Both the position numbers and the translations under genes were made by a program. Source: Candidatus Iainarchaeum sp. (GTDB lineage: Archaea; Iainarchaeota; Iainarchaeia; JAGGVJ01). Taken from it: a stretch of DNA of 59,456 nt. The notes below the pieces were generated by a model. It was given only the letters and a program-made list of their open reading frames with translations. It was not told the DNA's origin and made no database searches. Location: positions 1-59,456 of the forward strand of contig JAGGVJ010000026.1 in the NCBI GenBank assembly GCA_021158055.1, read 5' to 3'. This document shows positions 6,074-58,173 of the stretch, piece by piece; the stretch's first letter is position 1; every line of letters starts with the position of its first letter.

Positions 6074-6200
6074 TTTCCTTAAACATTGCATCGGTAAAGG
6101 TGGGTTAGTGGCTTTTCTGACCTTTCAGCAGGATCATTCGTACCGCTTCCACTGCCGAAAATGCAAATTAAGGAAAAACTTTTTCCCAACAGTTAAAACC

Positions 6201-6297
6201 GCAGCCGGCCAACATGCGCCTATTTTTCGGGTTCGAATCCCGCAACTGCAATCACTTTGCAACCGGCAAAGCAAACCAAAAACAGCAACTTGCTGTT
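6201..6297 (+). repeat. tRNA-like leader element copy E2 (shortened inner hairpin)
   Basis: 5' arm GCAGCCG 6201-6207. TATTTTT box. GGGTTCGAATCCC 6229-6241. 3' arm CAACTGC 6243-6249 (5 of 7 pairs). Hairpin CTTTGC/GCAAAG 6255-6271. Hairpin AACAGCA/TGCTGTT 6281-6297. AGGAGG RBS follows. Confidence 0.55.
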
Positions 6298-6488: not shown

Positions 6489-6519
6489 TGCTCTGCACAG
6501 GCAAAACATTTCTAAAACC

Positions 6520-6645
6520 GCAGCCGACCAACACACGCCAGGCATGTGCCACTATTTTTCGGGTTCGAATCCCACAGCTGCAATCGCTTTGCTAACACAA
6601 GCACAGCAACCGGCAAAGCAAACCAAAACAGCAAACCATGCTGTT
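6520..6645 (+). repeat. tRNA-like leader element copy E3
   Basis: 5' arm GCAGCCG 6520-6526. Inner hairpin CACACGC/GCATGTG. CTATTTTT box. GGGTTCGAATCCC 6561-6573. 3' arm CAGCTGC 6575-6581 (6 of 7 pairs, with a C-G pair where E1 has T-A). Hairpin GCTTTGC 6586-6592 / GCAAAGC 6613-6619. Hairpin AACAGCA 6627-6633 / TGCTGTT 6639-6645. Confidence 0.6.
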
Positions 6646-7572: not shown

Positions 7573-7602
7573 ACTAACCAAAACGAACACAATATAGTTC
7601 TG

Positions 7603-7711
7603 TAGTCGACCCACATGCACCGGGCGTGTACCTCTTTTTTCGGGTTCGAATCCCGCAGCTGCAATCGCTCTGCAACCGGCAAAGCAAAACAAAACAGCAG
7701 GAACTCGCTGT
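7603..7711 (+). repeat. tRNA-like leader element copy E4
   Basis: 5' arm GTAGTCG 7603-7609. Inner hairpin ACATGC/GCGTGT. GGGTTCGAATCCC 7642-7654. 3' arm CAGCTGC 7656-7662 (4 Watson-Crick pairs, 2 G-T wobbles, 1 mismatch). Hairpin GCTCTGC 7667-7673 / GCAAAGC 7679-7685. Hairpin ACAGC/GCTGT 7694-7711. GGAGG RBS follows. A TTTATTTTTAC TATA-like box lies ~30 nt upstream of the 5' arm. Confidence 0.6.
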
Positions 7712-7727
7712 AAATCTGGAGGAAACC

Positions 7728-8222
7728 ATGTTTAAAAAAACACACATAAATGCAGACTGGCTGCTAAATGCCAAACAAATAGAAAAGGCTGCAAACGGAC
7801 TTAGGAATTTTGAACCCCTAAGCAATACCACGTCTCCGCAACTACCTAACTTGGTTGAAACAGAAGAAGTCATTGCACAGGCAATGTTCTTTTTCAGAAA
7901 ACAATTTCTCCCATCAATGGTTAAACAACCTAAGAAACTGGAAAAGCATTTTCAGAGGTCGTATAATTTCGCAGATGACTGTGAAAGAATATTATTCCTG
8001 AAAAAAATTGCTCTTAGTACAAACACCCATGGACAAAGTGGGATATTACCCGTTGAAGCTGTTTACCTCTTGGGAAAAGAAAACCCGGTGGAAAGCTTAG
8101 ATCCTCTCTTGGAAATAATGAACAACAGCAACAACCCCCAGGTAAGAAACGCATCAGCTGCAATCATCACCAAAGTCCTGGAATTCCAAAACAGCAGGAT
8201 ACCTGCAGAAACTACAAAGTAA
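7728..8222 (+). CDS. hypothetical protein, possibly HEAT-repeat-like
   Basis: The ATG at 7728 follows a GGAGG RBS; the track ORF from 7626 would run through E4. The C-terminal LDPLLEIMNNSNNPQVRNASAAIITKVL resembles a HEAT/PBS-lyase repeat. Confidence 0.5.
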   Translation: MFKKTHINADWLLNAKQIEKAANGLRNFEPLSNTTSPQLPNLVETEEVIAQAMFFFRKQFLPSMVKQPKKLEKHFQRSYNFADDCERILFLKKIALSTNTHGQSGILPVEAVYLLGKENPVESLDPLLEIMNNSNNPQVRNASAAIITKVLEFQNSRIPAETTK

Positions 8223-8374
8223 AGACAAAAAGAAAGCTGCTCAGAACAAATGAAAAGCCGCTTAACAGACAAATCCAAACAAAAATTGGCTTCTTTTTTA
8301 ACGCCACTACTTTTTTCATCGCTCTCACAACGGCAAAACATGCCAAAATCGCTGAGAGACAACAAGTTTTCCAA

Positions 8375-8469
8375 GCAGTTGAACCGCACGCAACAAAGCA
8401 TGCAACACTATTTTTCGGGTTCAAATCCCGCAACTGCCATCGCTCTGCCAAAAAAGCAACCGGCAAAGC
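8375..8469 (+). repeat. tRNA-like leader element copy E5
   Basis: 5' arm GCAGTTG 8375-8381. Inner hairpin GCACGC/GCATGC. CTATTTTT box. GGGTTCAAATCCC 8417-8429. 3' arm CAACTGC 8431-8437 (perfect 7 bp). Hairpin GCTCTGCC 8442-8449 / GGCAAAGC 8462-8469. Confidence 0.6.
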
Positions 8470-8500
8470 AACAAGATACAATACAATAGGATAAAACCAA

Positions 8501-9478
8501 ATGAACAAACAATCAGCAGAACTAAACGAACTTCTGAAAAAGTTCTTCCCTAACATCAACGGGATTCTTGAAGGACTTGAACGAGAAAACTGGTCACAGG
8601 AAAGTGCCTTAAGCGCAGTATCAAGCATGCTTTCAAATGGACCTGTTCAGGAACTATTCCAGTTCAAAAGCAGAGTATTCCCCATGTACGTGGAAAACAT
8701 GGACCCGGAATGGTTCGGAATGCTAACCGCCGTTATTGTAGCGGAAGACATAGAAACGTTCTATATCCTGGGAGCTTTGATGGAGTTTCTCAAAAAAATC
8801 GATAGTGGTGCTCTTTCCACTAAAGATGAATTGATGCACGAGTTTTTCGCCATCACAAAAGAACTCACAAAAAATCGGGAAATGAGCAGGTTTGAGGAAA
8901 TCAGCGTTGTTGTCTGCTGCTCAACAGAAGAAGAGTTAGAAGCAGTAACAACTCAGCTTCGGGCCAACAAACTCTGGCAGAACGCCATAAACTACTTTGA
9001 TAAAGAAATTTATCCAAAAGTAAAAGCAATTCTGAACCTTGAAAAACCGGTTTTCGGAAGAACTTCCGCTGAATTTTTGGTGACCAACAATCAGGATGAT
9101 TTCCTGGCTAAATGCAAGGACAAGCCAGTTGTCATAATGCCAAAGCTAAGAAACGAAAACCAGCCTGACTACGAGCAGCTGATAGAAAAACTGCTTGAAA
9201 ACGGGTGCAAAATAACTGCGCCAACATGGTTAGTAACTTCCCCGAATAACACTCTTCTGGAAAGAAGAATAAAGGCAGTTAAAGAGCTCTCAAAGCAAAG
9301 AGACTGGAAAACCGAACTTGTCCTGCACACCGGAGGAATGGGCTTTTTCCCGGATACGAATCTGGAGGAGATTCAATCCACCTTAAGAATCAACGTGGAA
9401 CGGCAGGGCGTTCTTGAAATGGCCCAGGACATCGCAGACATAACCGGCGGAATAATCATAGTCACAGAAACGACGTAA
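8501..9478 (+). CDS. hypothetical protein
   Basis: 325-aa ORF downstream of E5, followed by a strong hairpin/T8 terminator. No motif recognised. Confidence 0.6.
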   Translation: MNKQSAELNELLKKFFPNINGILEGLERENWSQESALSAVSSMLSNGPVQELFQFKSRVFPMYVENMDPEWFGMLTAVIVAEDIETFYILGALMEFLKKIDSGALSTKDELMHEFFAITKELTKNREMSRFEEISVVVCCSTEEELEAVTTQLRANKLWQNAINYFDKEIYPKVKAILNLEKPVFGRTSAEFLVTNNQDDFLAKCKDKPVVIMPKLRNENQPDYEQLIEKLLENGCKITAPTWLVTSPNNTLLERRIKAVKELSKQRDWKTELVLHTGGMGFFPDTNLEEIQSTLRINVERQGVLEMAQDIADITGGIIIVTETT

Positions 9479-9526
9479 GCCTCAAAAACTAAATTTGATG
9501 GCTATCCGCAGGGAACAGTAAACTAA

Positions 9527-9560
9527 GTGTGGCTTACTCCCTTGCCACACACTTTTTTTT
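9527..9560 (+). terminator. hairpin + T8 terminator
   Basis: GTGTGGC 9527-9533 / GCCACAC 9544-9550, followed by ACTTTTTTTT. Confidence 0.6.
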
Positions 9561-9623
9561 AAATTAAAAAATGAAAAATAAGTTGCTCAACTCTTACTTT
9601 AAAAAGCAAATCACAAGAGGTGA

Positions 9624-10658
9624 ATGAAAATGAAAACCTACTACTGCACACTCAAGATATACTTCATGAGAGACAAACCAGAAATAACTGATGAAGAAAT
9701 CGAAACCGTGAAAAGAATTTACTTAAAGGAGCTGGAAAAGAAAAAACCCGAGCTGCCAAACCAGGGGGCTCAAGTCACAATCGAAGCCACCACCTGCCAA
9801 CAGGCGCTCAACACAGCAGCCAACACGTACGAATTCTTAATACCTAAACCAAAATACAACACAACCAACGCAATTTGGGCCCACATAAGAAACTTAAACG
9901 AAAAAAACAAAAGCGTTCTGTTTTGGGGGCACATTGTTATCCTAAACAAGAAAAAAGAAGGTTTGAGCACTAGCCATCTTGCCTTGCCGCATGAAGAAGA
10001 CGAAGAACATTACCTCACTAAATTGGTGAACAAACTCACCAAGTCATTTCTGGATTTGTTTATTGGCCGTACTCCCAGCTCACCGCACAGCGAACACCAT
10101 CTTCTGATAGAAAGTATGCCCAACAAAGCAAAAACAACCTCACGGATAGAATATGTTGTAAATGAGATAACTAAAAAAATGCCTCCTTTGTTAAAGGAAA
10201 CGAACAAGGAAGCAAAAACAACAAAACAAGAAACAAGAGGAGAAAAAAAAGCAATGAACCCTTCTCTAAAATACAGCCTTGAGGTTGATTTTACCTCAAA
10301 AAACGGAAGCTCCCGCATAAGGTTGTTTGTCCCTGTAACAAACGGCAACAAAACCTACGCTATCCTGCCGGACATACAGACAAAAGCAGACAAAGTGTTG
10401 CTGCTCTACCAGGACTTCTCTTCAGGGGAATCAAAGGCAGGGGTGCTTTCAGACGTGCTTGTAACGTCGACATCAACCCAGTTGATCATTGACGGGAAAG
10501 AACCGGTAAATGAAGAAAATCCTTTTGGGAGCTGTTCTTCAATTGTAACAGTAAGCTCAACCAGAGAAGAAAACATAATACGTTCGTTGGGAAACGACCC
10601 ATCAGATTACGAAAAAGACCTTTCAAAGGTCTTGAAAAAGGCGCTTGCTCACCGTTAG
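9624..10658 (+). CDS. hypothetical protein (first gene of the CDC48-like operon)
   Basis: 344-aa ORF with a GAGGTG RBS; the start is ATG 9624 or 9630. No motif recognised. Confidence 0.55.
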   Translation: MKMKTYYCTLKIYFMRDKPEITDEEIETVKRIYLKELEKKKPELPNQGAQVTIEATTCQQALNTAANTYEFLIPKPKYNTTNAIWAHIRNLNEKNKSVLFWGHIVILNKKKEGLSTSHLALPHEEDEEHYLTKLVNKLTKSFLDLFIGRTPSSPHSEHHLLIESMPNKAKTTSRIEYVVNEITKKMPPLLKETNKEAKTTKQETRGEKKAMNPSLKYSLEVDFTSKNGSSRIRLFVPVTNGNKTYAILPDIQTKADKVLLLYQDFSSGESKAGVLSDVLVTSTSTQLIIDGKEPVNEENPFGSCSSIVTVSSTREENIIRSLGNDPSDYEKDLSKVLKKALAHR

Positions 10659-10699
10659 TTCGCGGGATGCCTTTGACAATAAAAAGATAGGAGGAAACC

Positions 10700-11080
10700 A
10701 TGACATCACTAATCATGAAGGTACCTTCCAAAGACGGTGCCAAAGAACTGCTGGTATTCTGCGGAGAACAAGAAACAACTGACGTGTCGATTGAACTCCA
10801 GCAAGGAATACTGTACAAACTCAAAAACGGAGTACTGCTGATTCTCCAGTACCTGCCTATAAACACTTCTGACATCATTGTTGCAAAAGCCGCGGAAATA
10901 CACTTGTTCCATGGAGAAAGCATCAAGGCAGAACTGGTTGGAAACGCTCCGCTTACCCGAGTATACGCAATCGGGAAAGAACCACTGATAAGGGAACTGA
11001 AAAGAATCAAACAGCACACAAGATTCCGCTGGGACGAACAGCGTGCAAGTATGGATCCCGTAAGCAGAATAGAAGTTTAG
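10700..11080 (+). CDS. hypothetical protein
   Basis: 126-aa ORF with a strong AGGAGG RBS, 9 nt before the CDC48-like gene. Confidence 0.55.
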   Translation: MTSLIMKVPSKDGAKELLVFCGEQETTDVSIELQQGILYKLKNGVLLILQYLPINTSDIIVAKAAEIHLFHGESIKAELVGNAPLTRVYAIGKEPLIRELKRIKQHTRFRWDEQRASMDPVSRIEV

Positions 11081-11089
11081 GAGGAAGAA

Positions 11090-13252
11090 ATGACTGCAAA
11101 TATCAACGTAAAACTGATGAGAGACGACGAAATCCAAAACGGTGCGTGCCGAATAAGCAAGGCACTGTCAACCGAACTGAGAATAAGTCAGGGTCAGGTA
11201 ATCGAGATAGCCGGAATCAACAGCAAAAGACGTGCTATAGTTGTCATCTCCGAAGTTTCGGAAGCACCCGGTGATGCAGAAACAAAGCAACTCATCTGGG
11301 CAAACAACGAAACAATTCTCAATTCCAATGTGGATTTTGAGGGACGAGCACAGGTGAGCGCGATTCAAAAAGTCCGCGAGGCAAAAGAAATAACCGTGGC
11401 ACCGTTGAACACTTCCATAATACCATCCCTGCTGGATCAAAACAAGTTCAAAAACAGCGTAACAGGGCGCTTCTTCGCAAAGGGGAACATAATATCAAGC
11501 ATGGGAAGCTTCAGCGTTGAGGGCTCAGGCACTGATGGGCATGACAACTTCATCGAATACAAGGTAAAAATAGTGTCAACAAAGCCGGATTCATCGGTTC
11601 AGGTCACTAAAAAAACCAACATAATATTCAAGGAACCCATACGCGGAGAAATTGACTTTGGAGACATCGGAGGATTGAATAGCCAGATAGAAACAATGCA
11701 GGAACTGGTGGAATGGCCGCTTCGCTACCCTGAAATATTCGAGCATTTAGGGCAGGATTCCCCAAAAGGCGTTCTTCTGCACGGTCCGCCCGGAACCGGA
11801 AAAACCCATCTGGTAAGAGCAATAGCAAGATCTGCAGATGCTCACTTCATATACGTGAACCCCGGGGAAATCAGCGCTGATCCCACTCAGGCAAAAACCC
11901 GCATTGACGAGTTGTTCAACGAAGCAAACAATCACCCTGGCCCGGCAATAATCTTTTTGGACGAAATTGACGCAGTTGCGCCAAAGAGAAGCGAGTTAAG
12001 AAACCCAATCTATTCCAGCATAGTGTCGCATCTGCTCACAAAAATAGACGGCATGGAAACCAATTCGCAAATCATGGTGATTGGCGCTACAAACAGCCCA
12101 AACAGCATTGATGAAGCCATGCGCAGGCCTGGGCGACTTGACATTGAAATAGAGATCCCATCCCCGGACAAGGAAGGGAGAATGGAAATCCTCGAAATTC
12201 ATACACGGGGAATGCCGTTTGAGACCTCAAAGCAAAGAATTGACATTCTGGAGCCCATAAGCGAGGCAACTCACGGGTTTGTCGGAGCAGACCTGATGTT
12301 TCTCTGCAAATCTGCAGCACTTGCGTGCATAAGACGGAACTGGCTGGACATCGAACTAGACGAAAACGAACACATCCCGCCAAAGGTTCTGCGGACACTG
12401 CGGGTGAATCTGGGTGATTTCAAAGAAGCTTTGAAAACAACAACACCCTCTGTTGGCCGGGATATCATCGTGGAGAAACCAGATGTCGACCTGAAAAAAG
12501 ACATCGGTGGACTGAACGAAGCCAAAAAAGAGCTTTTGGAGACCGTTGTCAGGGCATGGGCAAACAAAGAGGAAATCGCAAGGCTAAACCCCTCAACCAA
12601 AATCCCAAGGGGAATCGTATTGCACGGACCCCCGGGAACCGGAAAAACATTCCTTGCAAAAGGACTGGCAAAAGAAATGGGTTTTCATTTGATTGTGGTA
12701 AAACCAAGCGACGTCCTGTCAAAATGGCACGGCGAATCCGAAGGTACAATAAGCAAGGTGTTCAGCAAGGCAAAATCACTTGCACCCTGCATCATTGTAT
12801 TCGAAGAGTTTGAATCACTGGTGCCTGTCCGCGGACAAGCGTCGGATTCTGCCGGGGCTGCAAACAACAGATTAGTGAACCAGATACTCACTGAAATGGA
12901 TGGTTTTGACAGCCTTACAGACGTCATTGCCATAGCGACAACAAATCGCATTGACATGATTGACCCTGCAGTACTGCGAAGCGGCAGATTTTCTGTAACG
13001 ATACCTGTATCAGATCCTGACGAAGGCGAAAGAGAAGACATCTTCAGAAAGATCTTCAAGAGCGCCACAATCAAAGACGACATTGATTTCAATGAACTTG
13101 CAATGGCAAGCGATGGCCTGAATGGCTCTGACATAAAGGAAGTCCTTGACAGGGCAGTGTACAAAACCATTACCCTCAAAGGAAAGCACATAAAAAAAGA
13201 AAGTGTGCTGGCAGCGATAGAAGACATAAAGGAAACAAAGAAGGAAAACTAA
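11090..13252 (+). CDS. divergent CDC48/VCP/p97-like double-ring AAA+ ATPase
   Basis: N-terminal CDC48-N-like domain. D1: [10 protein letters not shown] Walker [10 protein letters not shown] Walker B, RRPGRLD arginine fingers. D2: [10 protein letters not shown] Walker [10 protein letters not shown] (Walker B with D>E), SKWHGESE aromatic pore loop, LRSGRF. The D1 pore loop lacks the aromatic/GESE motif. The C-terminus (..ETKKEN) has no HbYX motif. Confidence 0.9.
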
Positions 13253-13323
13253 GGAACATCAGTTGTTTCTCTTTCCTTTTTTATGTCAAAAAATTAAAAA
13301 AACAAAATTTGGAGGCATAAGCA

Positions 13324-14007
13324 ATGAGATCAACATACACAATAAATTTCTTCAGAAACTCTGAAGAGATTAAACTAAATGAACTGGAGAGGATAGCCAA
13401 AGAGCTTTCAAATACGACAACATTCAATTGCAAAATTGAAATACACAAAAGCCCGCTTGAAAAAGCAAGGGGTTCAGAACTGAATAGCTCATTCTTTGAG
13501 GAAGGCTGCAATCTTGACGATTCTTTTGTCTTTGCGGCATTTGTTGAAGAGAACATGCCCGGTGTTAACACTGACCATATACTGATTGGACAAAGTTCAA
13601 GGGGATGCCTGGTCAGGGTAAAAGAAAACAGTGATGCAACAATGCATAACTTACTTCACCAACTCGGGCACGTGTTTGGAATTGAGGACCACTGCACAAA
13701 AACAAAGTGCGTAATGTACCCCCTCTACATAAAAGGCGCGGTGGACTTCAAAAACCCTTTCTGCAGCGACGGGAATAGCAGTTGTGGAAGCATAATTGAA
13801 GAAGCAGTGTTTCACAAACAGGACCCTGACCACTGGGATAACATTGCCACAGGCAGTTGCGAAAACACAACTTCAGCTCACGAACTGGCCGGAAAACCGC
13901 AAATCAAGCACAGCACTCGGAGAGACACAGACTTCCTGAAGAAAATAAAAACACACGTTGAAAGGCCAACTGAAAGAAGCCTCATACAACTACTGGAGGA
14001 AACATAA
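13324..14007 (+). CDS. archaemetzincin-like (M54-like) zinc-protein with HQxxH instead of HExxH
   Basis: MHNLLHQLGHVFGIEDHCTKTKCVMYP...FCSDGNSSC fits the archaemetzincin signature HExxHxxGxxHC-x4-C-x-M...C, with two differences. The catalytic Glu is replaced by Gln, and there is a one-residue insertion before HC. Confidence 0.6.
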   Translation: MRSTYTINFFRNSEEIKLNELERIAKELSNTTTFNCKIEIHKSPLEKARGSELNSSFFEEGCNLDDSFVFAAFVEENMPGVNTDHILIGQSSRGCLVRVKENSDATMHNLLHQLGHVFGIEDHCTKTKCVMYPLYIKGAVDFKNPFCSDGNSSCGSIIEEAVFHKQDPDHWDNIATGSCENTTSAHELAGKPQIKHSTRRDTDFLKKIKTHVERPTERSLIQLLEET

Positions 14008-14999
14008 TGTTCTTATCCACCCACGCATACCCCGGACATGACTACATACTCCTCAGCATGACAGAGAGTCTTGTGCTTATGATTGCTGTGATAATCTTTA
14101 ATGCGGTTGTAGCAAGCCTTGTTGTATCACTGAAAAACAAGTACCTTGAAAACAACTACAGGATAAGTGACCTGTCAGAAGACAAAATTGCGGTTTTATT
14201 CCTTGTACTTGTAAACACAACAATCATGCTTCTGTTCATCAAAGACGGAACACACAACATCATGCACTTCTGGCCAGGTGACTTTATGAATGCTGTCCTG
14301 TTAACTGCCATTGCTGCATTGGGAGCACTGGTAACAGCAAACATATTCCTTGGAACATACAGGTTCACGGAAGCACCCCCGGAAGGCCAACAATCAGTGA
14401 AGGCAACCTTCAATTCAGATGACGGGCGACTTCAGATAAACCCACAAAAACCCAAAGAATGGTCAATGGGTTTGTGCGATGCGCCGATAGTAACCAAAGA
14501 AGCGCTGAGATCCGCAGCCAGAATAGCAATTGTCGGAGCGATTGTCTTTCTGTTGATGCTCGTGCTATCCAGTTTTAAGGTGTCAATAAGCCGGACAGAA
14601 TTATCATGCATATTTGGCATGTACCTGGCAGTAGACATTATTCTGGCAATGAGGCTTCAGGCCATACTTGGCAGAAGAAATATGGACGAGCGCTCATTCC
14701 TTGCAAAGCCCGAAAACATGTTTTATTACAACCAACAAAAACACTTAAAGCAAAGAGCATCCGGGAAGCAAACCTTTGCAACAACTGACAAAGATAAACT
14801 GATATTGCTGATTATGCTATTAATAGGTGGAGGAATTACATCCTTAATCCTATTGATAATAATAATCGGAACGATAACAAGCAGCATCGGTTACTCCATA
14901 GCTAACATGAGCGAAAACGACAACTACATGCCACACTTCCTTATTAGTTTGGTGGTCTTCTACCTGTTGTTTTTTTACGGAGAAGATGTCCTTTCCTAA
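14007..14999 (+). CDS. polytopic membrane protein (about 7 TM), unknown function
   Basis: 330-aa ORF whose start overlaps the previous stop (TAATG). Multiple long hydrophobic segments. Confidence 0.6.
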   Translation: MFLSTHAYPGHDYILLSMTESLVLMIAVIIFNAVVASLVVSLKNKYLENNYRISDLSEDKIAVLFLVLVNTTIMLLFIKDGTHNIMHFWPGDFMNAVLLTAIAALGALVTANIFLGTYRFTEAPPEGQQSVKATFNSDDGRLQINPQKPKEWSMGLCDAPIVTKEALRSAARIAIVGAIVFLLMLVLSSFKVSISRTELSCIFGMYLAVDIILAMRLQAILGRRNMDERSFLAKPENMFYYNQQKHLKQRASGKQTFATTDKDKLILLIMLLIGGGITSLILLIIIIGTITSSIGYSIANMSENDNYMPHFLISLVVFYLLFFYGEDVLS

Positions 15000-15051
15000 C
15001 GAGACAAGAAACCAAGAACACACAAAAACAAAGAGAATAGGAGGAATCAAG

Positions 15052-15852
15052 ATGAGTGAACAAGTATACACCTACAACAATCCCTGCGGAGGAATCCCTG
15101 CAGAAAAAATGCTTTTAGCATGCACTGCAATTGCTGAAACCTTTGCAAACGGAACAGAAAGCTTTGAGACAGCCATCAACGAAAACAGGAAAAAGCTTTC
15201 ATGCATCGCAGGAATATCTGTTGAACGGACAGCAGTGCTTAAAGGACTTGTAAAGAACTCGATAAAAGCGCCAGAAAAGGGTGTGAAAAAGGCAGGCAAC
15301 ATCCAAAAGGCGATAATCGAACTGAACCCGAACAAACCCATAAACGCAAAGGCAGGAAAGGGTTCAAGAACAGGAAAAGTTTTCAAACCGCCCGTTACAG
15401 TGGTGGCTGAAATGGAAAAAGACAATCCTGAAAGTGCCAAAGTGCAGATAATAATGCCTTTTTCTGCTGAAGACGATTCGGAATGCGACCAACTGGCAAA
15501 GGACATAATAAAAGACCTTTATGTCATGGCCACTGGAAAGCACATTACTGACAGTCAGATACAATTCATGGAACCAGCCCCCCTCAACCAAAGTGTGTGC
15601 GTGGAATGCGGAGAAAAAACACTCCATATCCACTACTGTCCGCTTTGTGGAAACCGATACTGCTCAAAACACAGGAGCCCGGTAAACCACAGGTGCTGCA
15701 ATTTGTCTGCAGTAACAAAAGAGCACAAAACAGCAAATCCAAAAGGGACAATCACCAAGGCAGAGGGAACAACCGGCATGGAACACGAATCCACAGCAGG
15801 ACACGAGCCCACAGCAATAACTGTAGAACGCAGAACGCAAATGTGCGGGTGA
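15052..15852 (+). CDS. AN1-type zinc-finger protein
   Basis: The ATG at 15052 follows an AGGAGG RBS. The C-terminal CVECGEKTLHIHYCPLCGNRYCSKHRSPVNHRC matches the AN1 pattern C-x2-C-x9-C-x2-C-x4-C-x2-H-x5-H-x-C exactly. Confidence 0.8.
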   Translation: MSEQVYTYNNPCGGIPAEKMLLACTAIAETFANGTESFETAINENRKKLSCIAGISVERTAVLKGLVKNSIKAPEKGVKKAGNIQKAIIELNPNKPINAKAGKGSRTGKVFKPPVTVVAEMEKDNPESAKVQIIMPFSAEDDSECDQLAKDIIKDLYVMATGKHITDSQIQFMEPAPLNQSVCVECGEKTLHIHYCPLCGNRYCSKHRSPVNHRCCNLSAVTKEHKTANPKGTITKAEGTTGMEHESTAGHEPTAITVERRTQMCG

Positions 15853-15893
15853 ACACCCCCTTGAAAAAGGATACCCACCTAATCTGAGGGGTT

Positions 15894-15915
15894 GGCTTTA
15901 TTTTTCACGCTGCCC
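15894..15915 (+). promoter_or_regulatory. 22-nt promoter-like box GGCTTTATTTTTCACGCTGCCC, copy 1
   Basis: Identical 22-mer also at 16591-16612. Contains a TATA-like TTTATTTTT. Lies 94 nt upstream of element E6. Degenerate relatives lie upstream of E5 (8287-8304, GGCTTCTTTTTTAACGCC) and E4 (7564-7574). Confidence 0.4.
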
Positions 15916-16008
15916 CACGGTTTTTTTATTACCCATGTAACGGCAAAGAAGGCAGAATAATACACATCCCCCTTCACCGTATTGCACAAGCAAAACCCAA
16001 TTGCATCA

Positions 16009-16123
16009 GCAGTTGAACCGCACGCAACCGGCGCATGCCCCTATTTTAGGGTTCAAATCCCGCAACTGCCATCGCTTTGCAAACCGGCAAAGCAAACAAC
16101 GCAAACAGCAAAAATTCGCTGTT
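16009..16123 (+). repeat. tRNA-like leader element copy E6
   Basis: 5' arm GCAGTTG 16009-16015. Inner hairpin GCACGC/GCATGC. CTATTTTA box. GGGTTCAAATCCC 16049-16061. 3' arm CAACTGC 16063-16069 (perfect). Hairpin GCTTTGC 16074-16080 / GCAAAGC 16087-16093. Hairpin AACAGC 16104-16109 / GCTGTT 16118-16123. Confidence 0.6.
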
Positions 16124-16146
16124 AAACAAAGTTTAGAAGTGTAAAA

Positions 16147-16515
16147 ATGGACCGAGAAACCAACACAGTGCACATAAGAACAGCAGTCATAGAAGAAGAG
16201 ATCAGCACAGATAAAAGACTGATGCTGCATCAGGACACTGAATTCAAGGAAAACATTGCCTGCGCAGGCATAATGTGTGAAGATAGCCTTTGGCATATCA
16301 ACGCAAAGAACATCGACACAAACGGCGGCGACATCGAGGCATGGAATATTGATGTAAAAGGAAACATCAACACGTGGAACATCCTTGCAGAGGGAAACAT
16401 CAACGCAGGAGACATCAATGCGGACACCCTCAAAGCAAAGAACATCCTTGCAAGCGACATGAAAGTAAAAGGACCTATTGTCAAGATATACCAAATAAAC
16501 AAAAGGACAAATTAA
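16147..16515 (+). CDS. repeat protein, possibly beta-helical (bactofilin-like)
   Basis: 122-aa ORF with short periodic repeats NIDTNGGDIEAWNIDVKGNINTWNILAEGNINAGDINADTLKAKNI. These are reminiscent of bactofilin/DUF583 beta-helix turns. The function call is weak. Confidence 0.45.
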   Translation: MDRETNTVHIRTAVIEEEISTDKRLMLHQDTEFKENIACAGIMCEDSLWHINAKNIDTNGGDIEAWNIDVKGNINTWNILAEGNINAGDINADTLKAKNILASDMKVKGPIVKIYQINKRTN

Positions 16516-16590
16516 CGCAAAAAGGAAGATCAACGCAACAAAGATCAAAGAGTGCAAATGAGTACTCCTTGATTAGTAAATGGAAGGGCC

Positions 16591-16612
16591 GGCTTTATTT
16601 TTCACGCTGCCC
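16591..16612 (+). promoter_or_regulatory. 22-nt promoter-like box GGCTTTATTTTTCACGCTGCCC, copy 2
   Basis: Exact copy of 15894-15915, placed 29 nt upstream of the wHTH gene start. This spacing is appropriate for an archaeal TATA box with a short leader. Confidence 0.45.
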
Positions 16613-16640
16613 ACTCTCCTTTTACACAGAGGAAAAGATA

Positions 16641-16886
16641 ATGAACAATAAAGACATGGAACAAATCCTGAAACTCATCAAAAAACCCAGGTATAATGGG
16701 TGCATAACACGTACGACAGTTATACACATAACTAAACTGTCTGCTCAAAGGATTGATGATGCTGCGCACTGCTTGGAAAAACTTGACATAATCAACATCA
16801 TTTATGGCAAGCATCACGGAATGAGAACAAGCACCCACTACCAATTGATCAGTTGGGAGGAAGAGATACAGAGATATTTTCATTAA
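16641..16886 (+). CDS. small winged-helix DNA-binding protein (putative island regulator)
   Basis: The ATG at 16641 follows GAGGAAAAG. The 81-aa sequence MNNKDMEQILKLIKKPRYNGCITRTTVIHITKLSAQRIDDAAHCLEKLDIINIIYG... has an HTH-plus-wing-like pattern. The track ORF from 16374 overlaps the previous gene. Confidence 0.5.
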   Translation: MNNKDMEQILKLIKKPRYNGCITRTTVIHITKLSAQRIDDAAHCLEKLDIINIIYGKHHGMRTSTHYQLISWEEEIQRYFH

Positions 16887-16916
16887 CAACCGAAAAAGAC
16901 AAAGCCACTCGCATCA

Positions 16917-17006
16917 GCAGTTGAACCGCACGCAACGGAGCATGCACCTATTTTAGGGTTCGAATCCCGCAACTGCAATCGCTTTGCCAACAGCAACCGG
17001 CAAAGC
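16917..17006 (+). repeat. tRNA-like leader element copy E7
   Basis: 5' arm GCAGTTG 16917-16923. Inner hairpin GCACGC/GCATGC. CTATTTTA box. GGGTTCGAATCCC 16956-16968. 3' arm CAACTGC 16970-16976 (perfect). Hairpin GCTTTGCC 16981-16988 / GGCAAAGC 16999-17006. It starts only 30 nt after the wHTH stop, so it is intercistronic. Confidence 0.6.
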
Positions 17007-17030
17007 AATAAAGACATCGGAGACAACATA

Positions 17031-17945
17031 ATGTCGGAAAAACGACCACCTATGAAAGCAGAATATTGCTTCAGAAGCGATATCAAACCCACCAGCACTC
17101 CACAAACGAACATAAGTCAGTACAAGCATGGAGATCAGACACTGGCAATCAACCGTGCCAGAGAAAAAGTGCAGTTAGACACGCAAAGTGTCCTGCACAT
17201 TGAAAAAATCAATGACACTTTTGTGACATGGTATGTTACACTGGGTGAACATGTTATTACAACAATGGCACCCTGGATCAGCAACACCCAAGCACAAAAA
17301 ACATTGGTCAACGGATATCTCAACGCCCAAGCATATGACATAAACGGTTGCGGGTATTTTGTATACCTCAACAAAGAGAATAACACCCTTGTTGAAACCA
17401 AATACGTGTTCAGGTTTCTCAAAAGACAAAAGAATGACACAGTCACCATAAAAGTGACAAAATTCTCAAAGCCCCACAAGGAGACAATACCAAACAGCAT
17501 TATGAAAACAAGCGAAACCATAAATGTGGTCCTGCCAAAAGCAAGGGACGAGAACCCGAATCATTTCCCGGAAAGCATACCCCTGTTTTCAAACGGCAGA
17601 CATACGATCTACCTGGCCTATAACGGCTACAACGGCCCGCATCACAAAACGTACGAATTCGGCTTGTATGTAAAGAGCACCAACGGAAGATGGGCAGCTT
17701 TCCAGGTCTTCCAAGCGTCACTCAAGAAGGATAATCCAGAGTGGAAACACTTACACACAAAACTGGAGGGGCACATAAGACTGCGGAAAGACATCCCGCA
17801 ATCGGTTAAACTCATTGCCAACAGTGCTTTGCCAGCCACCGACCGCAATACTCAGCCACTGGAACTCAATTTCCAGCTCAACAGTGCTGATGAAAGGATC
17901 GCCGCAATGACAATCTGGAATGCCAAACCAGAAAATTGCACCTGA
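17031..17945 (+). CDS. hypothetical protein, island family B
   Basis: 304-aa ORF with a GGAG RBS. It shares motifs with the next ORF: QSVLHIEKINDTFVTWYVTL vs QCILHIDKIDNDVSLLEWHVKL, and YVFRFLKRQKNDTVTIKV vs YLIKFLKDKRNRVYTKWV. Confidence 0.6.
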   Translation: MSEKRPPMKAEYCFRSDIKPTSTPQTNISQYKHGDQTLAINRAREKVQLDTQSVLHIEKINDTFVTWYVTLGEHVITTMAPWISNTQAQKTLVNGYLNAQAYDINGCGYFVYLNKENNTLVETKYVFRFLKRQKNDTVTIKVTKFSKPHKETIPNSIMKTSETINVVLPKARDENPNHFPESIPLFSNGRHTIYLAYNGYNGPHHKTYEFGLYVKSTNGRWAAFQVFQASLKKDNPEWKHLHTKLEGHIRLRKDIPQSVKLIANSALPATDRNTQPLELNFQLNSADERIAAMTIWNAKPENCT

Positions 17946-17969: not shown

Positions 17970-18392
17970 ATGCCGGAAAAAGGGCGCACTGGCCCAACAG
18001 AAGGAAATCCGGGAAGAAAACTGCACAGCGAAAGCAACATCCAATCCTGCGACACCGTACCAAGACACTCAGTACGGCTAAAAACAGGAAAGCGAATACC
18101 ACTTGACAATCAAAATCAATGCATCCTGCACATTGACAAGATTGACAACGATGTTTCTCTATTGGAATGGCATGTCAAACTGGATAAAGTGACAAACCCA
18201 CCAGTAATCATTGATGCTGCAGCATACAGCATAGCTGGCAAAGGGCACTTTAAATGCCTTCTCAAAGCGAATGACGACAGCATTCACACCATCCAGGTTA
18301 CTTATCTGATTAAGTTCCTGAAAGACAAAAGAAACAGAGTTTACACAAAGTGGGTAAAAACCGTACTCTGGTGGACCAGCGACAATCCGTGA
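17970..18392 (+). CDS. hypothetical protein, island family B (shorter paralog)
   Basis: 140-aa ORF with local similarity to 17031-17945, followed by element T3. Confidence 0.5.
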   Translation: MPEKGRTGPTEGNPGRKLHSESNIQSCDTVPRHSVRLKTGKRIPLDNQNQCILHIDKIDNDVSLLEWHVKLDKVTNPPVIIDAAAYSIAGKGHFKCLLKANDDSIHTIQVTYLIKFLKDKRNRVYTKWVKTVLWWTSDNP

Positions 18393-19534: not shown

Positions 19535-22153
19535 ATGCTCGGAATCAACTTTCACGAAGACATCGTCACTTTCCCAATATGGAGTTCCGGGGAAAAAACA
19601 ATCCGACTGCTTAGCCGCGGCATCAAATACTTCAAAATAAAAAGCATTGCAAACGAGCACAGCGACCTGATTCAAAGCGTAAGCAAATTCAAAAACGCGT
19701 CTTTTGGAATAATTGTCAACAAAACAGAAAAAAAATTTGATTCCTACTTGTTTACTGCGGGAAACGTAACAAACAATAATCAAATGCCTGAAAAAATAAA
19801 GACAAACCTTCACATTTACGAGCAGACATTCATTTCAACACTCAAGGGATTTGACCTTGAACCGGTAAAAGACACGGAAATCAAAGACGTTTTTTTCGCA
19901 CCGCTTGGCGGAACACCCTCGTCAATCGATATAAAAAAAGAAGTCATTGTTGAATCAGGCACAGACAAATTCAAAATAATGGCAGGAAAACTTGAATTCA
20001 CAGAAACATTCCAGGAAACCGAACACATTTTAATGGAAGAAAAACTAAACGATTTTTTTGACAACATAGTTCCACTTGACATAAACTTTTCTTACATCGG
20101 AAGCGTAAGCCCGTGCGAAGACGGGTTCAAGTTCACAGCCTACCTAATCGTCAGGAAAAAAATAGACTCAACAGACGACAACTCAATAGTCTCTGACAAG
20201 CTTTCCCTTGTGAAAATGCTCAAAAACTCCTTCGGCTCAGAAAACGTAACATTCAAACTCAACACAAAAAAGTACCTTGAAGAAGCACTTTACACCCTGA
20301 CAAACACCGACACGGTTATCTCAAAAGACCACGCAAAAAACCTGCTGATTCTCCCCGGCTTCATCAAAGAACGCGGATCCGACCACTTCAAATCAATCGG
20401 GGAAAAAGAAACGCAAGGAGACATTCCTATCGGGCACATCCTTTCAAACGGCAAAAGAGTGCATGAATTCGGACTCAACCCCTCTGAATTACTGCGCCAC
20501 ACCTACATTTGCGGAAGCAGCGGTTCAGGAAAGACAATCGCCTGCAAGCACATTGTAATGAACGCAATAAACGCCGGATACAAAGTACTGCTGCTGGACT
20601 TAAGCAAAAGAAGCTACCGTGACTTAATCAACATGGGTTACGATTTCAAGACATTCACGCCCGGAAGAAGCGTCGCGCCTTTTCAGACAAATTTTTTGAG
20701 CCCGCCGACAGGAGTGGAACCCGCAGAATGGGCAAAAGCATGGGCAGACGTCTTCACCGAGTCATGGGGAATCGGTGAAGGAGGCCACTCAATAGTATTG
20801 AACCTGATAAAAGACCTCTACGAATCAAGAGGAATATTTAACGGAAGCACAGATTACCCAAACATACTTGACTTCAAAAAAGCAATTGAAGCATATGAAA
20901 AAATACTCGAGGGCCGTGAATCAGAATGGACAAAATCAGTCAAAAGAGCAGTGAACGTGTTAACATTCAAGTCAAGCAGTGAAATGTACAGCCACGAAGG
21001 CTACCCGCTTGAAAAACTGCTTAATCAAAACACGCTGATGGAGCTTGACTCGCTTGGAGAATACGAAAAAAGATACTTTGTAAACAACCTGTTGTTCTGG
21101 ATATACAAATACCTCCTCAACAAAGAAAAAACAGATAAACTGCGCCTGCTTGTGGTCATAGAAGAAGCGCACAACATCTTCAACCAGAAAAACTTAATGG
21201 ACAAAGAATCCATTCTCGACCAGCTTTTCAGGCAGATCCGCGAACTCGGGGTAGGGTTTATCACAATTGACCAGTCGCCTGCAAAATTCAGCAAAGTGGT
21301 CCTGGAAAACACATATACCAAAATAGCGCTCACCCTCTCTTACCGCGACAACATTGACGTGGTTGCAAAATCCATGGGGTTCTCAAGAGAACAAACCGAC
21401 CTTTTAAACAAACTGGACATAAGCGAAGCAATCGTAAACCTTTCAGGGCGCATAATCAACCCGTTCCTCATAAGCATCGACAACATTGAATCACACACCA
21501 TAAACGACGAATTTATCGCAAGAAAATTCAAATTCGACGGGCTTGACAAATACTTACAACTCGACAAGGCAAACGAAAAAATGGAAAAAATTCCCAGCAC
21601 TGAAGCAAAAATCCACTCAAGCCTGAAAGACATCTTGTTTGACCCCCACCACCTCGCAATAGTCAAGAAAAAAATATCAAAAATGACCCCTGAAATGAAC
21701 AATGTTTTCACGGCAGTCGGAAACGGAGAAGTGCTAACTGAAAAAGACAACATGAAAACAGGCATTTCAAAAGACGACTTTTCAGCCGCCTTGACACAAC
21801 TCATAAACCTTGGATTTGTAAGATTCAAAAAAACAAATGCAAACAACTTCATTTACTTCCTTGCACCCGAAGGCGAAGCAGCTTACGGCGTGCTGTTTGG
21901 CATGAAACTCTACGAAGAGGAAATTCTAGTGCAGGCAGAAGGAGAAATGAAACAAAAAATAGACCTATCACGCCTAAATCATACACTGAAAGAACTTGCA
22001 TTAAATAAAAAAGAAATCTGGATATTTGCAGACGACGCAAACCTGTCAAACCGGGCAATCCAGGAAGCGGCAAAATTCAACTTCAACGAAAACATAGAAC
22101 TGGAAATAAACATACAATGCAATGACGTGCACAGGAATTTCCTGTTCAAATAA
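19535..22153 (+). CDS. HerA/FtsK-superfamily (DUF87-like) P-loop ATPase with C-terminal winged-helix-like region
   Basis: 872 aa. Walker A ICGSSGSGKTIACKH. Walker B LRLLVVIEEAHNIF. GFITIDQSP motif typical of HerA/DUF87 ATPases. Large unrecognised N-terminal domain (~320 aa). C-terminal GISKDDFSAALTQLINLGFVRFKK is wHTH-like. Confidence 0.65.
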   Translation: MLGINFHEDIVTFPIWSSGEKTIRLLSRGIKYFKIKSIANEHSDLIQSVSKFKNASFGIIVNKTEKKFDSYLFTAGNVTNNNQMPEKIKTNLHIYEQTFISTLKGFDLEPVKDTEIKDVFFAPLGGTPSSIDIKKEVIVESGTDKFKIMAGKLEFTETFQETEHILMEEKLNDFFDNIVPLDINFSYIGSVSPCEDGFKFTAYLIVRKKIDSTDDNSIVSDKLSLVKMLKNSFGSENVTFKLNTKKYLEEALYTLTNTDTVISKDHAKNLLILPGFIKERGSDHFKSIGEKETQGDIPIGHILSNGKRVHEFGLNPSELLRHTYICGSSGSGKTIACKHIVMNAINAGYKVLLLDLSKRSYRDLINMGYDFKTFTPGRSVAPFQTNFLSPPTGVEPAEWAKAWADVFTESWGIGEGGHSIVLNLIKDLYESRGIFNGSTDYPNILDFKKAIEAYEKILEGRESEWTKSVKRAVNVLTFKSSSEMYSHEGYPLEKLLNQNTLMELDSLGEYEKRYFVNNLLFWIYKYLLNKEKTDKLRLLVVIEEAHNIFNQKNLMDKESILDQLFRQIRELGVGFITIDQSPAKFSKVVLENTYTKIALTLSYRDNIDVVAKSMGFSREQTDLLNKLDISEAIVNLSGRIINPFLISIDNIESHTINDEFIARKFKFDGLDKYLQLDKANEKMEKIPSTEAKIHSSLKDILFDPHHLAIVKKKISKMTPEMNNVFTAVGNGEVLTEKDNMKTGISKDDFSAALTQLINLGFVRFKKTNANNFIYFLAPEGEAAYGVLFGMKLYEEEILVQAEGEMKQKIDLSRLNHTLKELALNKKEIWIFADDANLSNRAIQEAAKFNFNENIELEINIQCNDVHRNFLFK

Positions 22154-33112: not shown

Positions 33113-33190
33113 TGGTGGGGCCGCCGCGATTTGAACGCGGGTTTCTACCTCCCCGAGGTAGGGGGATGGACCAAACTACCCTACGGCCCC
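33113..33190 (-). tRNA. tRNA-Pro (anticodon GGG) with encoded CCA
   Basis: Reverse complement GGGGCCG-TA-GGGT...-CTACC-TCGGGGA-GGTAG-AAAC-CCGCG-TTCAAAT-CGCGG-CGGCCCC-A-CCA. Full cloverleaf. The anticodon loop reads U-C-GGG-G-A, so position 33 is C, which is unusual. Confidence 0.8.
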
Positions 33191-34647: not shown

Positions 34648-34749
34648 TTTTTATTCCTCCTACTTCGTGGTTTCCCTCGCAGGGTTTTCTTTTTAAACAT
34701 CTTTGCTGCTTTGTGCTTTTCAACAACGTAATTTTTTGAAAAATCCACA

Positions 34750-34866
34750 TGCGGGAGGCCGGATTCGAACCGGCGAAAGCACTACACTACTAGGCCCTCA
34801 ACCTAGCCCCTTTAACCCAAGGCAGTAAGGTTTACTGCGCTTGATTGGCCGCTTGGGAACCCCCGC
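34750..34866 (-). tRNA. tRNA-Leu (anticodon GAG) with ~32-nt insertion (non-canonical intron) in the D-loop
   Basis: Reverse complement: acceptor GCGGGGG/CCTCCCGC-A, anticodon arm CTAGG-TTGAGGG-CCTAG, long variable arm, T-arm GCCGG-TTCGAAT-CCGGC. The region between the acceptor and anticodon stems is 53 nt where about 20 is expected. Removing ~32 nt leaves CCC-AAGTGGGTTAAA-GGG. Confidence 0.75.
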
Positions 34867-37676: not shown

Positions 37677-37734
37677 TTATTCACCTTTAGCTAATCAAAC
37701 AATATTATCGCATTTATCACGTAAAATCATAACA

Positions 37735-37834
37735 CGTCGGGGCTGGGATTCGAACCCAGGTAGGCCAGTGGCCTACTAGCTCCCCAGTAACTAAAATTCC
37801 AGGCTAGCGCGTTAGTCCGCTCTGCCACCCCGAC
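37735..37834 (-). tRNA. tRNA-Ser (anticodon GGA) with 15-nt canonical 37/38 intron
   Basis: Reverse complement: acceptor GTCGGGG/CCCCGAC-G, anticodon stem CTAGC/GCTAG enclosing CTGGAA-[TTTTAGTTACTGGGG]-A, long variable arm TAGGCCACTGGCCTAC, T-arm CTGGG-TTCGAAT-CCCAG. Confidence 0.85.
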
Positions 37835-40975: not shown

Positions 40976-41547
40976 TTCAACACCTCTTTGAACTCCCGCA
41001 CTGCGGATTCAAGTTCTCCGTCACCGTTTTTGATGATCTTTATTCTTGCCCCGCTCAGTACAGAACACACCGACGCGTACATCCTGTTGAATTCCTGGTG
41101 CTCTTTTACGTTTGTTTCAAAGGAATATCCTCTTTTGCGGCTTTTGTCTGCATTCCTTCTCGCAGTTATCTCTTCCGGAGTGGCTTCTATTATCACAATC
41201 AAGTTGGGTGTCAGGCGGTCAATTATCCACTGGGGAAATCCTGGGTAAAAGCCGGTAGGTGTCATCAGGGACAAGTGTGTGTCGACGATTATTCGCCCTT
41301 TTTCCTGCGCAAGTTTTTCAGCGGTTTTTTTCTGGTAAACAATATAGTCATCCTGAGACACTTTTGCCCGTATCTCGTCGCGGTTTTCAATCAAGCCGTC
41401 TGCTTTGAGCAATTCTGCAATCACTGTTCCAAAAGTCACTATCTTTATGTCCGTATCTTCTGTTGCTTTTTCTGCAACAGTTGACTTTCCGCTTCCGGAA
41501 ACTCCGGAAAGTATTATTACCTCATTTACTTTGCCTGGTTCGCTCAT
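40972..41547 (-). CDS. adkA: adenylate kinase (archaeal AdkA type)
   Basis: IILSGVSGSGKST P-loop, downstream of secY. Confidence 0.85.
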   Translation of the reverse strand: MSEPGKVNEVIILSGVSGSGKSTVAEKATEDTDIKIVTFGTVIAELLKADGLIENRDEIRAKVSQDDYIVYQKKTAEKLAQEKGRIIVDTHLSLMTPTGFYPGFPQWIIDRLTPNLIVIIEATPEEITARRNADKSRKRGYSFETNVKEHQEFNRMYASVCSVLSGARIKIIKNGDGELESAVREFKEVLK

Positions 41548-58010: not shown

Positions 58011-58082
58011 GTTAACTATATATGAACACAGGTTCAAAAATAAATGCGTTTTTAAGCGCAAACAAGAAAAAAAGACAAAAGG

Positions 58083-58173
58083 CGCCTCGGGAAGGACTCG
58101 AACCTTCGACTTTACGGTAGCTGCTGTTAAAAACAATAACAGCCGTACGCTCTACCAACTAAACTACCGAGGC
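58083..58173 (-). tRNA. tRNA-Asn (anticodon GTT) with 18-nt canonical 37/38 intron
   Basis: Reverse complement: acceptor GCCTCGG/CCGAGGC-G, anticodon stem TACGG/CCGTA enclosing CTGTTA-[TTGTTTTTAACAGCAGCT]-A, T-arm GAAGG-TTCGAGT-CCTTC. Confidence 0.85.

Follow-up and report, generated by a model that had tools for sequence, protein, structure and literature searches.

The stretch of DNA analysed here (the window, 59,456 nucleotides long) carries at 9624-15852 a cluster of six co-directional genes, three of which encode a divergent two-ring Cdc48-like ATPase, an archaemetzincin-like protein and a protein with an AN1 zinc finger. With moderate confidence, and on the strength of sequence and gene-order comparisons, we regard these three genes (the trio) as a mobile-element backbone module, in which a Cdc48-like unfoldase would act together with a co-encoded metzincin-type protease or pseudoprotease and an AN1 partner. 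An earlier note on this DNA had linked the ATPase, the metzincin-like protein, a membrane protein and the AN1 protein in a self-contained module for protein extraction or processing. The linkage of ATPase, metzincin-like and AN1 genes was upheld, as it is conserved in about seven lineages, but neither the six-gene unit nor the membrane link is conserved. No description of a Cdc48-metzincin-AN1 trio was found in the searchable literature.

With the metzincin-like protein as the query, phmmer searched 1.84 billion representative sequences exhaustively and returned three remote homologues (29-31% identity), and a profile built from six members found 12 metzincin-like proteins in 5.8 billion; the single-protein and profile searches together gave about 14 relatives. 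In every locus examined the metzincin-like gene lies directly 3' of a gene for a two-ring Cdc48-like ATPase, and wherever the contig reaches that far the AN1 gene comes next. The trio genes of the related loci are separated by -20 to +79 nucleotides (nt), commonly with a 4-nt overlap or a gap of 1-10 nt, and the AN1 gene begins -4 to +79 nt after the metzincin-like gene; in the three loci recovered by phmmer a gene for a small protein of 87-126 residues is found 5' of the ATPase gene. The three genes are thus adjacent, and often overlapping, in divergent lineages with identities of 22-29%, of which we count about seven (the window; L010/L011; L012/L013; L006-L009 with L017; L018, L027 and L028; L026; and L029, L032 and L033, where L numbers are our handles for contigs). 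The window proteins are 20-28% (metzincin-like) and 16-26% (AN1) identical to their relatives, and as judged by sequence the window carries the most divergent copy of the trio.

Only four genes of the island in which the cluster lies had counterparts in the related loci when all proteins were compared with all others by phmmer: the trio and a HerA-like ATPase gene. On the longer contigs a tyrosine integrase comes first, then proteins of the helix-turn-helix (HTH) and HFX_2341_N-like types, then a small protein that is anchored in the membrane and ends in Y-x-F-D-x-x-T-G-x-L, and then a small beta-rich protein; the trio follows, and after it come multi-zinc-ribbon proteins, a HerA/DUF87/TrwB-like ATPase (574-843 residues), MarR or winged-HTH (wHTH) regulators and genes for ParB or N6/N4 methylases. 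The integrase was found upstream of the trio in L026, L027/L028 and L032, and in L032 the integrase side adjoins a host aminoacyl-tRNA synthetase gene. The HerA-like ATPase is downstream of the trio in L008, L026, L027, L029 and L032. The product of 19535-22153 in the window is homologous to the ATPases 3' of the trio in L008, L027, L026 and L029, and the window keeps the relative order, trio and then HerA-like ATPase, at the edge of its island. No capsid genes were recognised in the related elements, and a scan of IMG/VR found no relative. As far as gene order can tell, these comparisons show that the trio belongs, in conserved order, to the backbone of integrated mobile elements of archaea, which form a rare family. 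Because it lies between the tyrosine integrase and the HerA-like ATPase on the longer contigs, it would be a module of the element backbone, and this fixed place suggests a backbone function rather than cargo.

The ATPase of the window matched TIGR01243 with a score of 570.4 bits over residues 13-713, under the curated cut-off of 802.65, and Pfam recognised two clear AAA plus AAA_lid_3 modules in it. The Pfam families CDC48_N and CDC48_2 gave no match with the window copy and weak matches with the related module ATPases; the N region of the window protein aligns with the VAT/p97 and canonical N domains. Neither ring has lost its Walker A, sensor-1 or Arg fingers; both Walker A motifs are intact and the D1 Walker B reads IIFLDEID. 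The three motif states that had been picked out by the earlier note were all confirmed by alignment: the D1 pore loop is degenerate (SAD-PTQAK against the canonical SKYYGESE, with no aromatic residue and one residue shorter), that of D2 is SKWHGESE, with Trp as its aromatic residue, and the D2 Walker B is FEEFES against FDEIDS, an Asp-to-Glu change in which the catalytic Glu is retained. The protein ends in ...IKETKKEN, without a C-terminal extension and without the hydrophobic-Tyr-X (HbYX) motif. The absence of HbYX had been offered as an argument against a housekeeping Cdc48; the absence is real, but it is not diagnostic alone, because the five canonical relatives that were aligned do not end in Hb-Y-X either. 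All of the module ATPases share the loss of the D1 aromatic residue, with the one-residue deletion, and the missing C-terminal extension, and their D1 Walker B motifs are degenerate to varying degrees (FEKID, IDDLD, IEEID). An aromatic D2 pore loop and the catalytic Glu are present in every one of them, and therefore D2 is probably the motor.

The window ATPase has no close relative, as everything else is at most 44% identical to it and consists of ordinary Cdc48s from many phyla (37-41% identity for many archaeal Cdc48s). In a quick tree (LG+G4) a branch with SH-aLRT support of 100 separated the module ATPases from 24 canonical Cdc48s, and in a careful tree (LG+C20) the corresponding branch separated them from 30 canonical Cdc48s with support of 100/99. 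By both phylogenies the module ATPases are outside the canonical archaeal Cdc48 clade, and the reading of the window gene as a housekeeping Cdc48 with chance neighbours was rejected. The top ATPase match, P0002, turned out to be an unrelated three-AAA protein and was discarded.

In the archaemetzincin-like protein HQLGHVFGIEDHC-x4-C-x-M aligns with HELGHTFGL-GHC-x4-C-x-M of the archaemetzincin AmzA (PDB 2x7m); the motif published for archaemetzincins is HEXXHXXGXXHCX4CXMX17CXXC (PMC3427221). The window protein retains His112, His116 and His123, the Met-turn and four Cys residues. Its third His is shifted by one residue (HQLGHVFGIEDH) against HxxxHxxGxxH, the shift in the relatives being 0-2, and the Met-turn, HC-TKTK-C-V-M, is followed after 15 residues by C-x6-C, for which the relatives have CxxC. 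Among 16 aligned members His112, Leu114, Gly115, His116, His123, Cys124, Cys129, Met131, Pro133 and Cys154 do not vary, and Cys147 hardly varies. Thus, the His and Cys ligands are kept and Gln occupies the position of the catalytic Glu, as the earlier note had described, and the Gln codon was also present in a second strain (see below). Loss of the Glu is not, however, a property of the family: HELGH is found in 14 of the 16 members and HQLGH only in the window and L010, which group together with support of 95/93 in the metzincin-like tree, subject to a long-branch caveat. The HQLGH of the window is a derived state. In the archaemetzincin AMZ-tk the E183Q variant had minimal activity, the exchange of Glu for Gln being reported to abolish activity (PMC4681839). 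Since the general base is Gln here as in that variant, the window protein would be a poor catalyst at best, which probably binds but hardly cleaves.

The assignment of this protein to the M54 family was borne out in part. The single sequence scored under the cut-offs (19.8 against 24.4 bits in Pfam, 24.8 against 145 in NCBIfam), but the four best PDB matches of the family profile are archaemetzincins (E = 5e-7 to 1.4e-6), followed by adamalysins and matrix metalloproteinases. The family forms a clade apart from the true archaemetzincins (100/100). Foldseek gave only noise with the metzincin-like model, and a scan of the contig collection was swamped by the short HELGH pattern, so that it yielded only one genuine archaemetzincin and one bacterial match. 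The proteases of the L027 clade have a FYGLGQ tail, whose resemblance to an SHP box is speculative.

The most likely start of the AN1 gene is 15052, where it has a strong ribosome-binding site (RBS; TAGGAGGAATCAAG); there is none at 14986, and 15052 is also the start chosen by the gene callers on five public contigs. All of the motifs quoted in the earlier note are present. The finger (residues ~183-216) has exactly the canonical spacing C-x2-C-x9-C-x2-C-x4-C-x2-H-x5-H-x-C, so that in its ligand pattern it is the textbook AN1 finger of the earlier note, and its ligands (CVEC-x9-CPLC-x4-C-SK-H-x5-H-R-C in the window) are invariant in 7-8 homologues. The window protein reached 24.9 bits with the Pfam model (PF01428), under its cut-off of 27.9, and the profile of the family matched AN1 structures including Cuz1 with E = 3.4e-6. 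The best Foldseek match, from a low-confidence model, was the AN1 domain of Cuz1 (TM 0.70 over 47 columns, E = 0.056). The family also has a conserved central domain (...MDILLTDASVP.E.C..IV...LYEKATGK...), for which Foldseek matched nothing, and a terminal Cys-Gly in 7/7 complete proteins, usually as (K/R)-(V/I)-P-C-G; the window protein ends in ...MCG. It had been claimed that eukaryotic AN1 proteins are dedicated Cdc48 adaptors. This is too strong, as Cuz1 binds Cdc48 by its UBL domain, its AN1 finger being needed for proteasome binding (PMC5035049), and for ZFAND2B the motif listed is a VIM (PMC10641518).

A second strain, from a cold-seep metagenome, is 89-98% identical over the cluster (~95%) and collinear with the window at 9478-16078. 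Within 11152-12100 of the ATPase gene there are 12 synonymous and 10 non-synonymous differences, giving a ratio of non-synonymous to synonymous polymorphism (pN/pS) of 0.24 (P = 0.001), and the ATPase is clearly under purifying selection. The metzincin-like gene (7 synonymous, 18 non-synonymous; pN/pS 0.66) and the C-terminal half of the AN1 gene (5 and 11; pN/pS 0.59) did not give significant values. The four coding indels between the strains (3, 3, 3 and 18 nt) are all multiples of 3, and the two strains agree in the Gln codon of HQLGH, all the zinc ligands, the AN1 ligands and the C-terminal MCG. The metzincin-like and AN1 genes evolve fast and yet stay open, with their key residues intact.

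As the N region aligns with Cdc48 N domains and the canonical C-terminal tail is missing, the ATPase probably works with the co-encoded protease. The ATPase would be hexameric, with the D2 ring as the translocating motor and a putative Cdc48-type N domain receiving partners or substrates, and with the metzincin-type protease it would make up a split ATP-dependent protein-processing machine, the logic of which would resemble that of FtsH or of eukaryotic Cdc48 with Wss1/SPRTN. The AN1 protein may be the partner of the protease, whether as an adaptor, a regulator or its first substrate. In the window copy, since the general base is Gln, the unfoldase would be combined with a pseudoprotease that holds substrates. 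The process served by the machine may be transfer of the element, its replication or the takeover of the host. A more elaborate scheme, which we rate as very unlikely, is that the C-terminal Cys of the AN1 protein caps the zinc of the metzincin-like protein in trans. The thiol of the invariant (K/R)-(V/I)-P-C-G would then act like the PRCGxPD propeptide of matrix metalloproteinases, and the Cdc48-like ATPase would pull the AN1 protein off the protease, so that the element would carry a latent protease gated by ATP; with the Gln variants, such as that of the window, a permanent zinc-bridged adaptor complex would result instead.

Several observations weigh against the trio as a working backbone module. 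The window lacks the small proteins, the integrase and the zinc-ribbon proteins of the related elements, and no recognisable integrase was found within 10 kb upstream of it. Its metzincin-like protein lacks the conserved tail of the family, FPD...FLxAVLxYYG, and the AlphaFold2 models, made from shallow alignments, are poor (pLDDT 49 and 44.6), so that support for the metzincin fold comes from motifs and profiles only. The branches of the window, L010 and L027 are long, which leaves both the ATPase and the metzincin-like trees open to long-branch attraction. The 71-nt gap between the ATPase and metzincin-like genes contains a T6 run and then an A/T-rich stretch, and the pN/pS values showed no significant departure from neutrality for either the metzincin-like or the AN1 gene. 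Two open reading frames (ORFs) take the place of a single ATPase gene in L026 and L029, which shows that the module can decay; this suggests a frameshift or decay there, with the metzincin-like and AN1 genes intact. Most of these points would also fit the view that the window copy is a relic in decay, left from an old integrated element, in which the ATPase is perhaps used and the metzincin-like and AN1 proteins drift without forming a working unit: the catalytic Glu and the tail are lost, the conserved small proteins are missing and the integrase was not found, a T-run follows the ATPase gene, neither pN/pS value is significantly below 1, and the split genes are evidence of decay within the family. 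We consider this unlikely, however. Both strains, whose nucleotide sequences differ by 2-11%, have every ORF intact, and the indels are only in-frame ones; every zinc ligand, the Met-turn, the AN1 ligands, the C-terminal CG and the strong RBSs are kept; and the Gln is common to the very distant L010, which suggests long retention and not recent decay.

The location on an accessory island and the existence of defence systems that pair an AAA ATPase with a protease could also mean that the element carries the trio as a cassette for defence or counter-defence, similar to IetAS, and not as a backbone module. A defence or anti-defence role had been put forward by the earlier note, and D2 does match the PADLOC model of IetA (E = 4e-62) and the NCBIfam model IteA (199 bits). 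The latter score is, however, far from the cut-off of 510 and comes from the generic AAA module of D2 only, canonical Cdc48, PAN and FtsH models outscore IteA, and no defence family was above threshold. The cluster has no subtilase or serine protease of the IetS type, its metzincin-like, AN1 and other genes have no match in PADLOC, and the trio stayed fixed between the integrase side and the HerA-like ATPase while other element genes diverged beyond recognition, which is how a backbone would behave; a defence cassette is in our view quite unlikely. It is highly improbable that all six genes form one membrane-associated extraction module with the membrane, 344-residue and 126-residue proteins as integral parts. 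In its favour, all six genes point the same way at short distances, a strong RBS precedes each of them, the membrane gene and the metzincin-like stop codon share 1 nt, small membrane proteins are found near the trio in related loci too, and the cluster is collinear in the second strain. None of these three proteins has a homologue in any related locus, however, and in all of the relatives the AN1 gene follows the metzincin-like gene without a membrane gene between them.

Set against known systems, the window ATPase is like Cdc48/VAT (TIGR01243; Thermoplasma VAT, PDB 5g4f) and p97 in having two classic AAA modules after an N region that aligns with theirs, and like p97 in lacking an aromatic pore loop in D1. 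It differs from Cdc48/VAT in its score under the family cut-off, the Asp-to-Glu change of the D2 Walker B, the deletion in the D1 loop, the lack of a C-terminal extension, its encoding on mobile elements and its branching with the module ATPases outside the 30 canonical sequences. The metzincin-like family has the active-site helix, the two His, the Gly, the third His followed by Cys, C-x4-C-x-M and the distal Cys pair (Cys4 site) in common with the archaemetzincins (M54; AmzA 2x7m and 3zvs; AMZ-tk), whereas one or two extra residues before the third His, an N-terminal half and a C-terminal tail of its own and its separate clade set it apart; the window differs further in its distal C-x6-C and, with L010, in the Gln. 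The family is always linked to Cdc48-like and AN1 genes, and the genuine archaemetzincin L014 is not. The AN1 protein resembles Cuz1, ZFAND1 and ZFAND2B in its C6H2 finger, the aromatic residue before the penultimate Cys and a link to the Cdc48 family, here a genomic one, but no UBL, VIM or UIM was detected in it, and its unrelated conserved central domain and invariant C-terminal Cys-Gly distinguish it from the eukaryotic AN1 proteins.

Prokaryotic AN1 fingers are reported by Burroughs, Iyer and Aravind to be paired with peptidases (rhomboid, M50 site-2 protease and WLM/SprT-like), either as fusions or as neighbours. The trio likewise combines an AN1 finger with a metalloprotease, but here the partner is soluble, archaemetzincin-like and encoded by a separate gene, a dedicated Cdc48-like ATPase is added, and the setting is a mobile element. 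Its logic would be that of Cdc48-Wss1, p97-SPRTN and FtsH, in which a small HExxH protease has its substrates delivered or remodelled by an unfoldase; the fold of the trio protease is, in contrast, that of a metzincin and not of WLM/SprT or M41, it is not fused to the ATPase as in FtsH, and no DNA-binding or SHP/VIM motifs were demonstrated. In the trio, prokaryotes offer a clear example of gene linkage between a dedicated Cdc48-type ATPase, an AN1 finger protein and a small zinc protease, and in eukaryotes both of these partnerships belong to the Cdc48/p97 cofactor network. Cdc48-family ATPases are common on archaeal viruses and plasmids, and the trio gives such an ATPase two defined partners. 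CDC48-family ATPases, HerA-like helicases, integrases and MarR/wHTH regulators are listed among the commonest virus- or plasmid-associated families in the dark-matter islands of archaea (Makarova et al.; PMC4158269), and the genes of the related elements fit this list. As the protease occurs naturally with Glu and with Gln, a comparison of active and pseudo-enzyme forms is built into the family. If the capping of the protease by the AN1 Cys were true, the trio would be a mobile-element-borne prokaryotic forerunner of the eukaryotic Cdc48-AN1 (Cuz1/ZFAND) and Cdc48-metalloprotease (Wss1/SPRTN) partnerships.

The six ORFs of the cluster are all present as the earlier note had listed them, co-directional and tightly spaced, each preceded by a GGAGG-type RBS, and so are the terminator before the cluster and the T-rich stretch after it. 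The hairpin (9527-9560) has a 7-bp stem and a 10-nt loop followed by T8, and folds with -12.4 kcal/mol (z = -2.55); T-runs lie 3' of 15852. The genes are separated, in order, by 41, 9 and 71 nt, then by a 1-nt overlap and then by 52 nt. Because of the T6 run and the A/T-rich stretch in the 71-nt gap, one transcript across all six genes is plausible and no more than that. Rfam had no match within 8000-17200, and PHROGs and PADLOC had none for any non-ATPase gene of the cluster. The 344-residue and membrane proteins matched no family in Pfam, NCBIfam, PADLOC or PHROGs, and no counterparts of these two or of the 126-residue protein were found in any related locus by all-against-all phmmer or hhalign. 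The 126-residue protein stands where the related loci have their conserved small protein (87-126 residues), but the hhalign probability with that family is 0.2%, with no detectable homology, and hhalign gave no link between the 344-residue protein and the small protein. A membrane gene between the metzincin-like and AN1 genes is found in the window only, and its product is not similar to the membrane proteins of L012.

The small protein of the related elements starts with a membrane helix, continues with an acidic linker of low complexity and ends in the conserved motif Y/F-x-F-D/N-x-x-T-G-x-L; in L012 a membrane protein has this motif at its N-terminus. The motif might serve the Cdc48-like ATPase as a docking peptide or as a degron. 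The conserved small-protein profile had no match in the PDB, and the Y-x-F-D-x-x-T-G motif is absent from the window. Two further proteins of the related elements, encoded at L027:2015-2806 (-) and L026:5845-6618 between the integrase and the trio, combine a weak match to the HFX_2341-like N-terminal domain (PF19810) with a wHTH-like C-terminus.

Table 1. Coordinates of the features described in the text, in the window unless a contig is named.
Feature	Position	Strand	Evidence or remark
Hairpin and T8 terminator of upstream gene	9527..9568	+	5' boundary of cluster; sequence and fold
344-residue protein, function unknown	9624..10658	+	ORF with RBS; lineage-specific
126-residue protein, function unknown	10700..11080	+	ORF with RBS
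Divergent two-ring Cdc48-family AAA+ ATPase, 720 residues	11090..13252	+	TIGR01243, alignments, trees, pN/pS
Archaemetzincin-like protein, 227 residues, HQLGH for HELGH	13324..14007	+	motifs, family profile, tree
Polytopic membrane protein, 330 residues, ~7 hydrophobic segments (hydropathy)	14007..14999	+	lineage-specific insertion
AN1 zinc-finger protein, 266 residues from RBS-preceded start	15052..15852	+	ligands, profile, Foldseek
HerA/DUF87-type P-loop ATPase, 872 residues	19535..22153	+	Pfam HerA_C and DUF87; PDB HerA 4d2i, E = 3.7e-8
Split Cdc48-like genes	L026:7530-9304 (276+315 residues); L029:2016-4141 (401+193 residues)	n/a	ORF calls
Small motif proteins of related elements	L027:4673-5089, L026:6865-7104, L007:1541-1813, L010:1039-1299, L012:9153-9653	n/a	conserved motif
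tRNA-like minihelices	4830-4920, 6170-6260, 6500-6590, 7585-7670, 8360-8450, 15990-16080, 16900-16985	+	7-bp acceptor-like stem and T-arm

The region around the cluster is accessory DNA, in agreement with the island setting proposed earlier. Co-directional plus-strand ORFs fill the window from 1 to 22153, and almost all of them are without a family match, the exceptions being a uS3-like protein (1080-1742) and the HerA/DUF87-type ATPase. From 22266 onwards core archaeal genes (mevalonate pathway, uS2, enolase and a ribosomal cluster) are found on the minus strand, which places the junction of island and core genes at 22153/22266. The island of ORFans is at least 32 kb long, with the HerA-like gene at its end, and extends at least 10 kb 5' of the window start. 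SecY (41544-42992) is at most 55% identical to any public sequence and its named relatives are from metagenome-assembled genomes of Micrarchaeota, Diapherotrites and Norongarragalinales; by this measure the host resembles a deep-branching DPANN-like archaeon. Contigs with the window locus come from two samples, and the run metadata give hydrothermal vent metagenomes, with no RNA runs among them.

The uS3-like protein (KH_2 and Ribosomal_S3_C) is a second, very divergent copy and is found on every public contig of the locus. The island also holds a family of paralogues, at 17031-17945 and 17970-18392 of the window and at L031:3682-4962, some 6 kb before the window begins, whose C-terminal domains have ...LHIDK(I/V)...W(H/Y)V.L... 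in common (phmmer E = 4e-8); the upstream one has duplicated membrane segments. A tRNA-like minihelix occurs in seven plus-strand copies with the consensus GCAGTTGA...ctattttNGGGTTCRAATCCCGCAACTGC-CA/AA. Every copy stands 5' of a gene and none is derived from tRNA-Pro (33113-33190). The cluster that starts at 9624 has no minihelix directly before it, the nearest copies on either side being at ~8418 and ~16050. Further matches to the GGTTCGAATCC T-arm lie on the minus strand of the core genes, at ~34700-34800, ~37700-37800 and 58081-58173. The only tRNAs that ARAGORN reported are tRNA-Pro and an odd one whose anticodon it left undetermined, and the minus-strand matches may be intron-containing or split tRNA genes that it missed. 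Finally, contigs from the source sample have a 15-nt insertion (ACATCAACGCAGGAG) at window position 16396, within ORF 16147-16515; this ORF is built of NI(D/N)xxG-type repeats, the number of which differs within the population.

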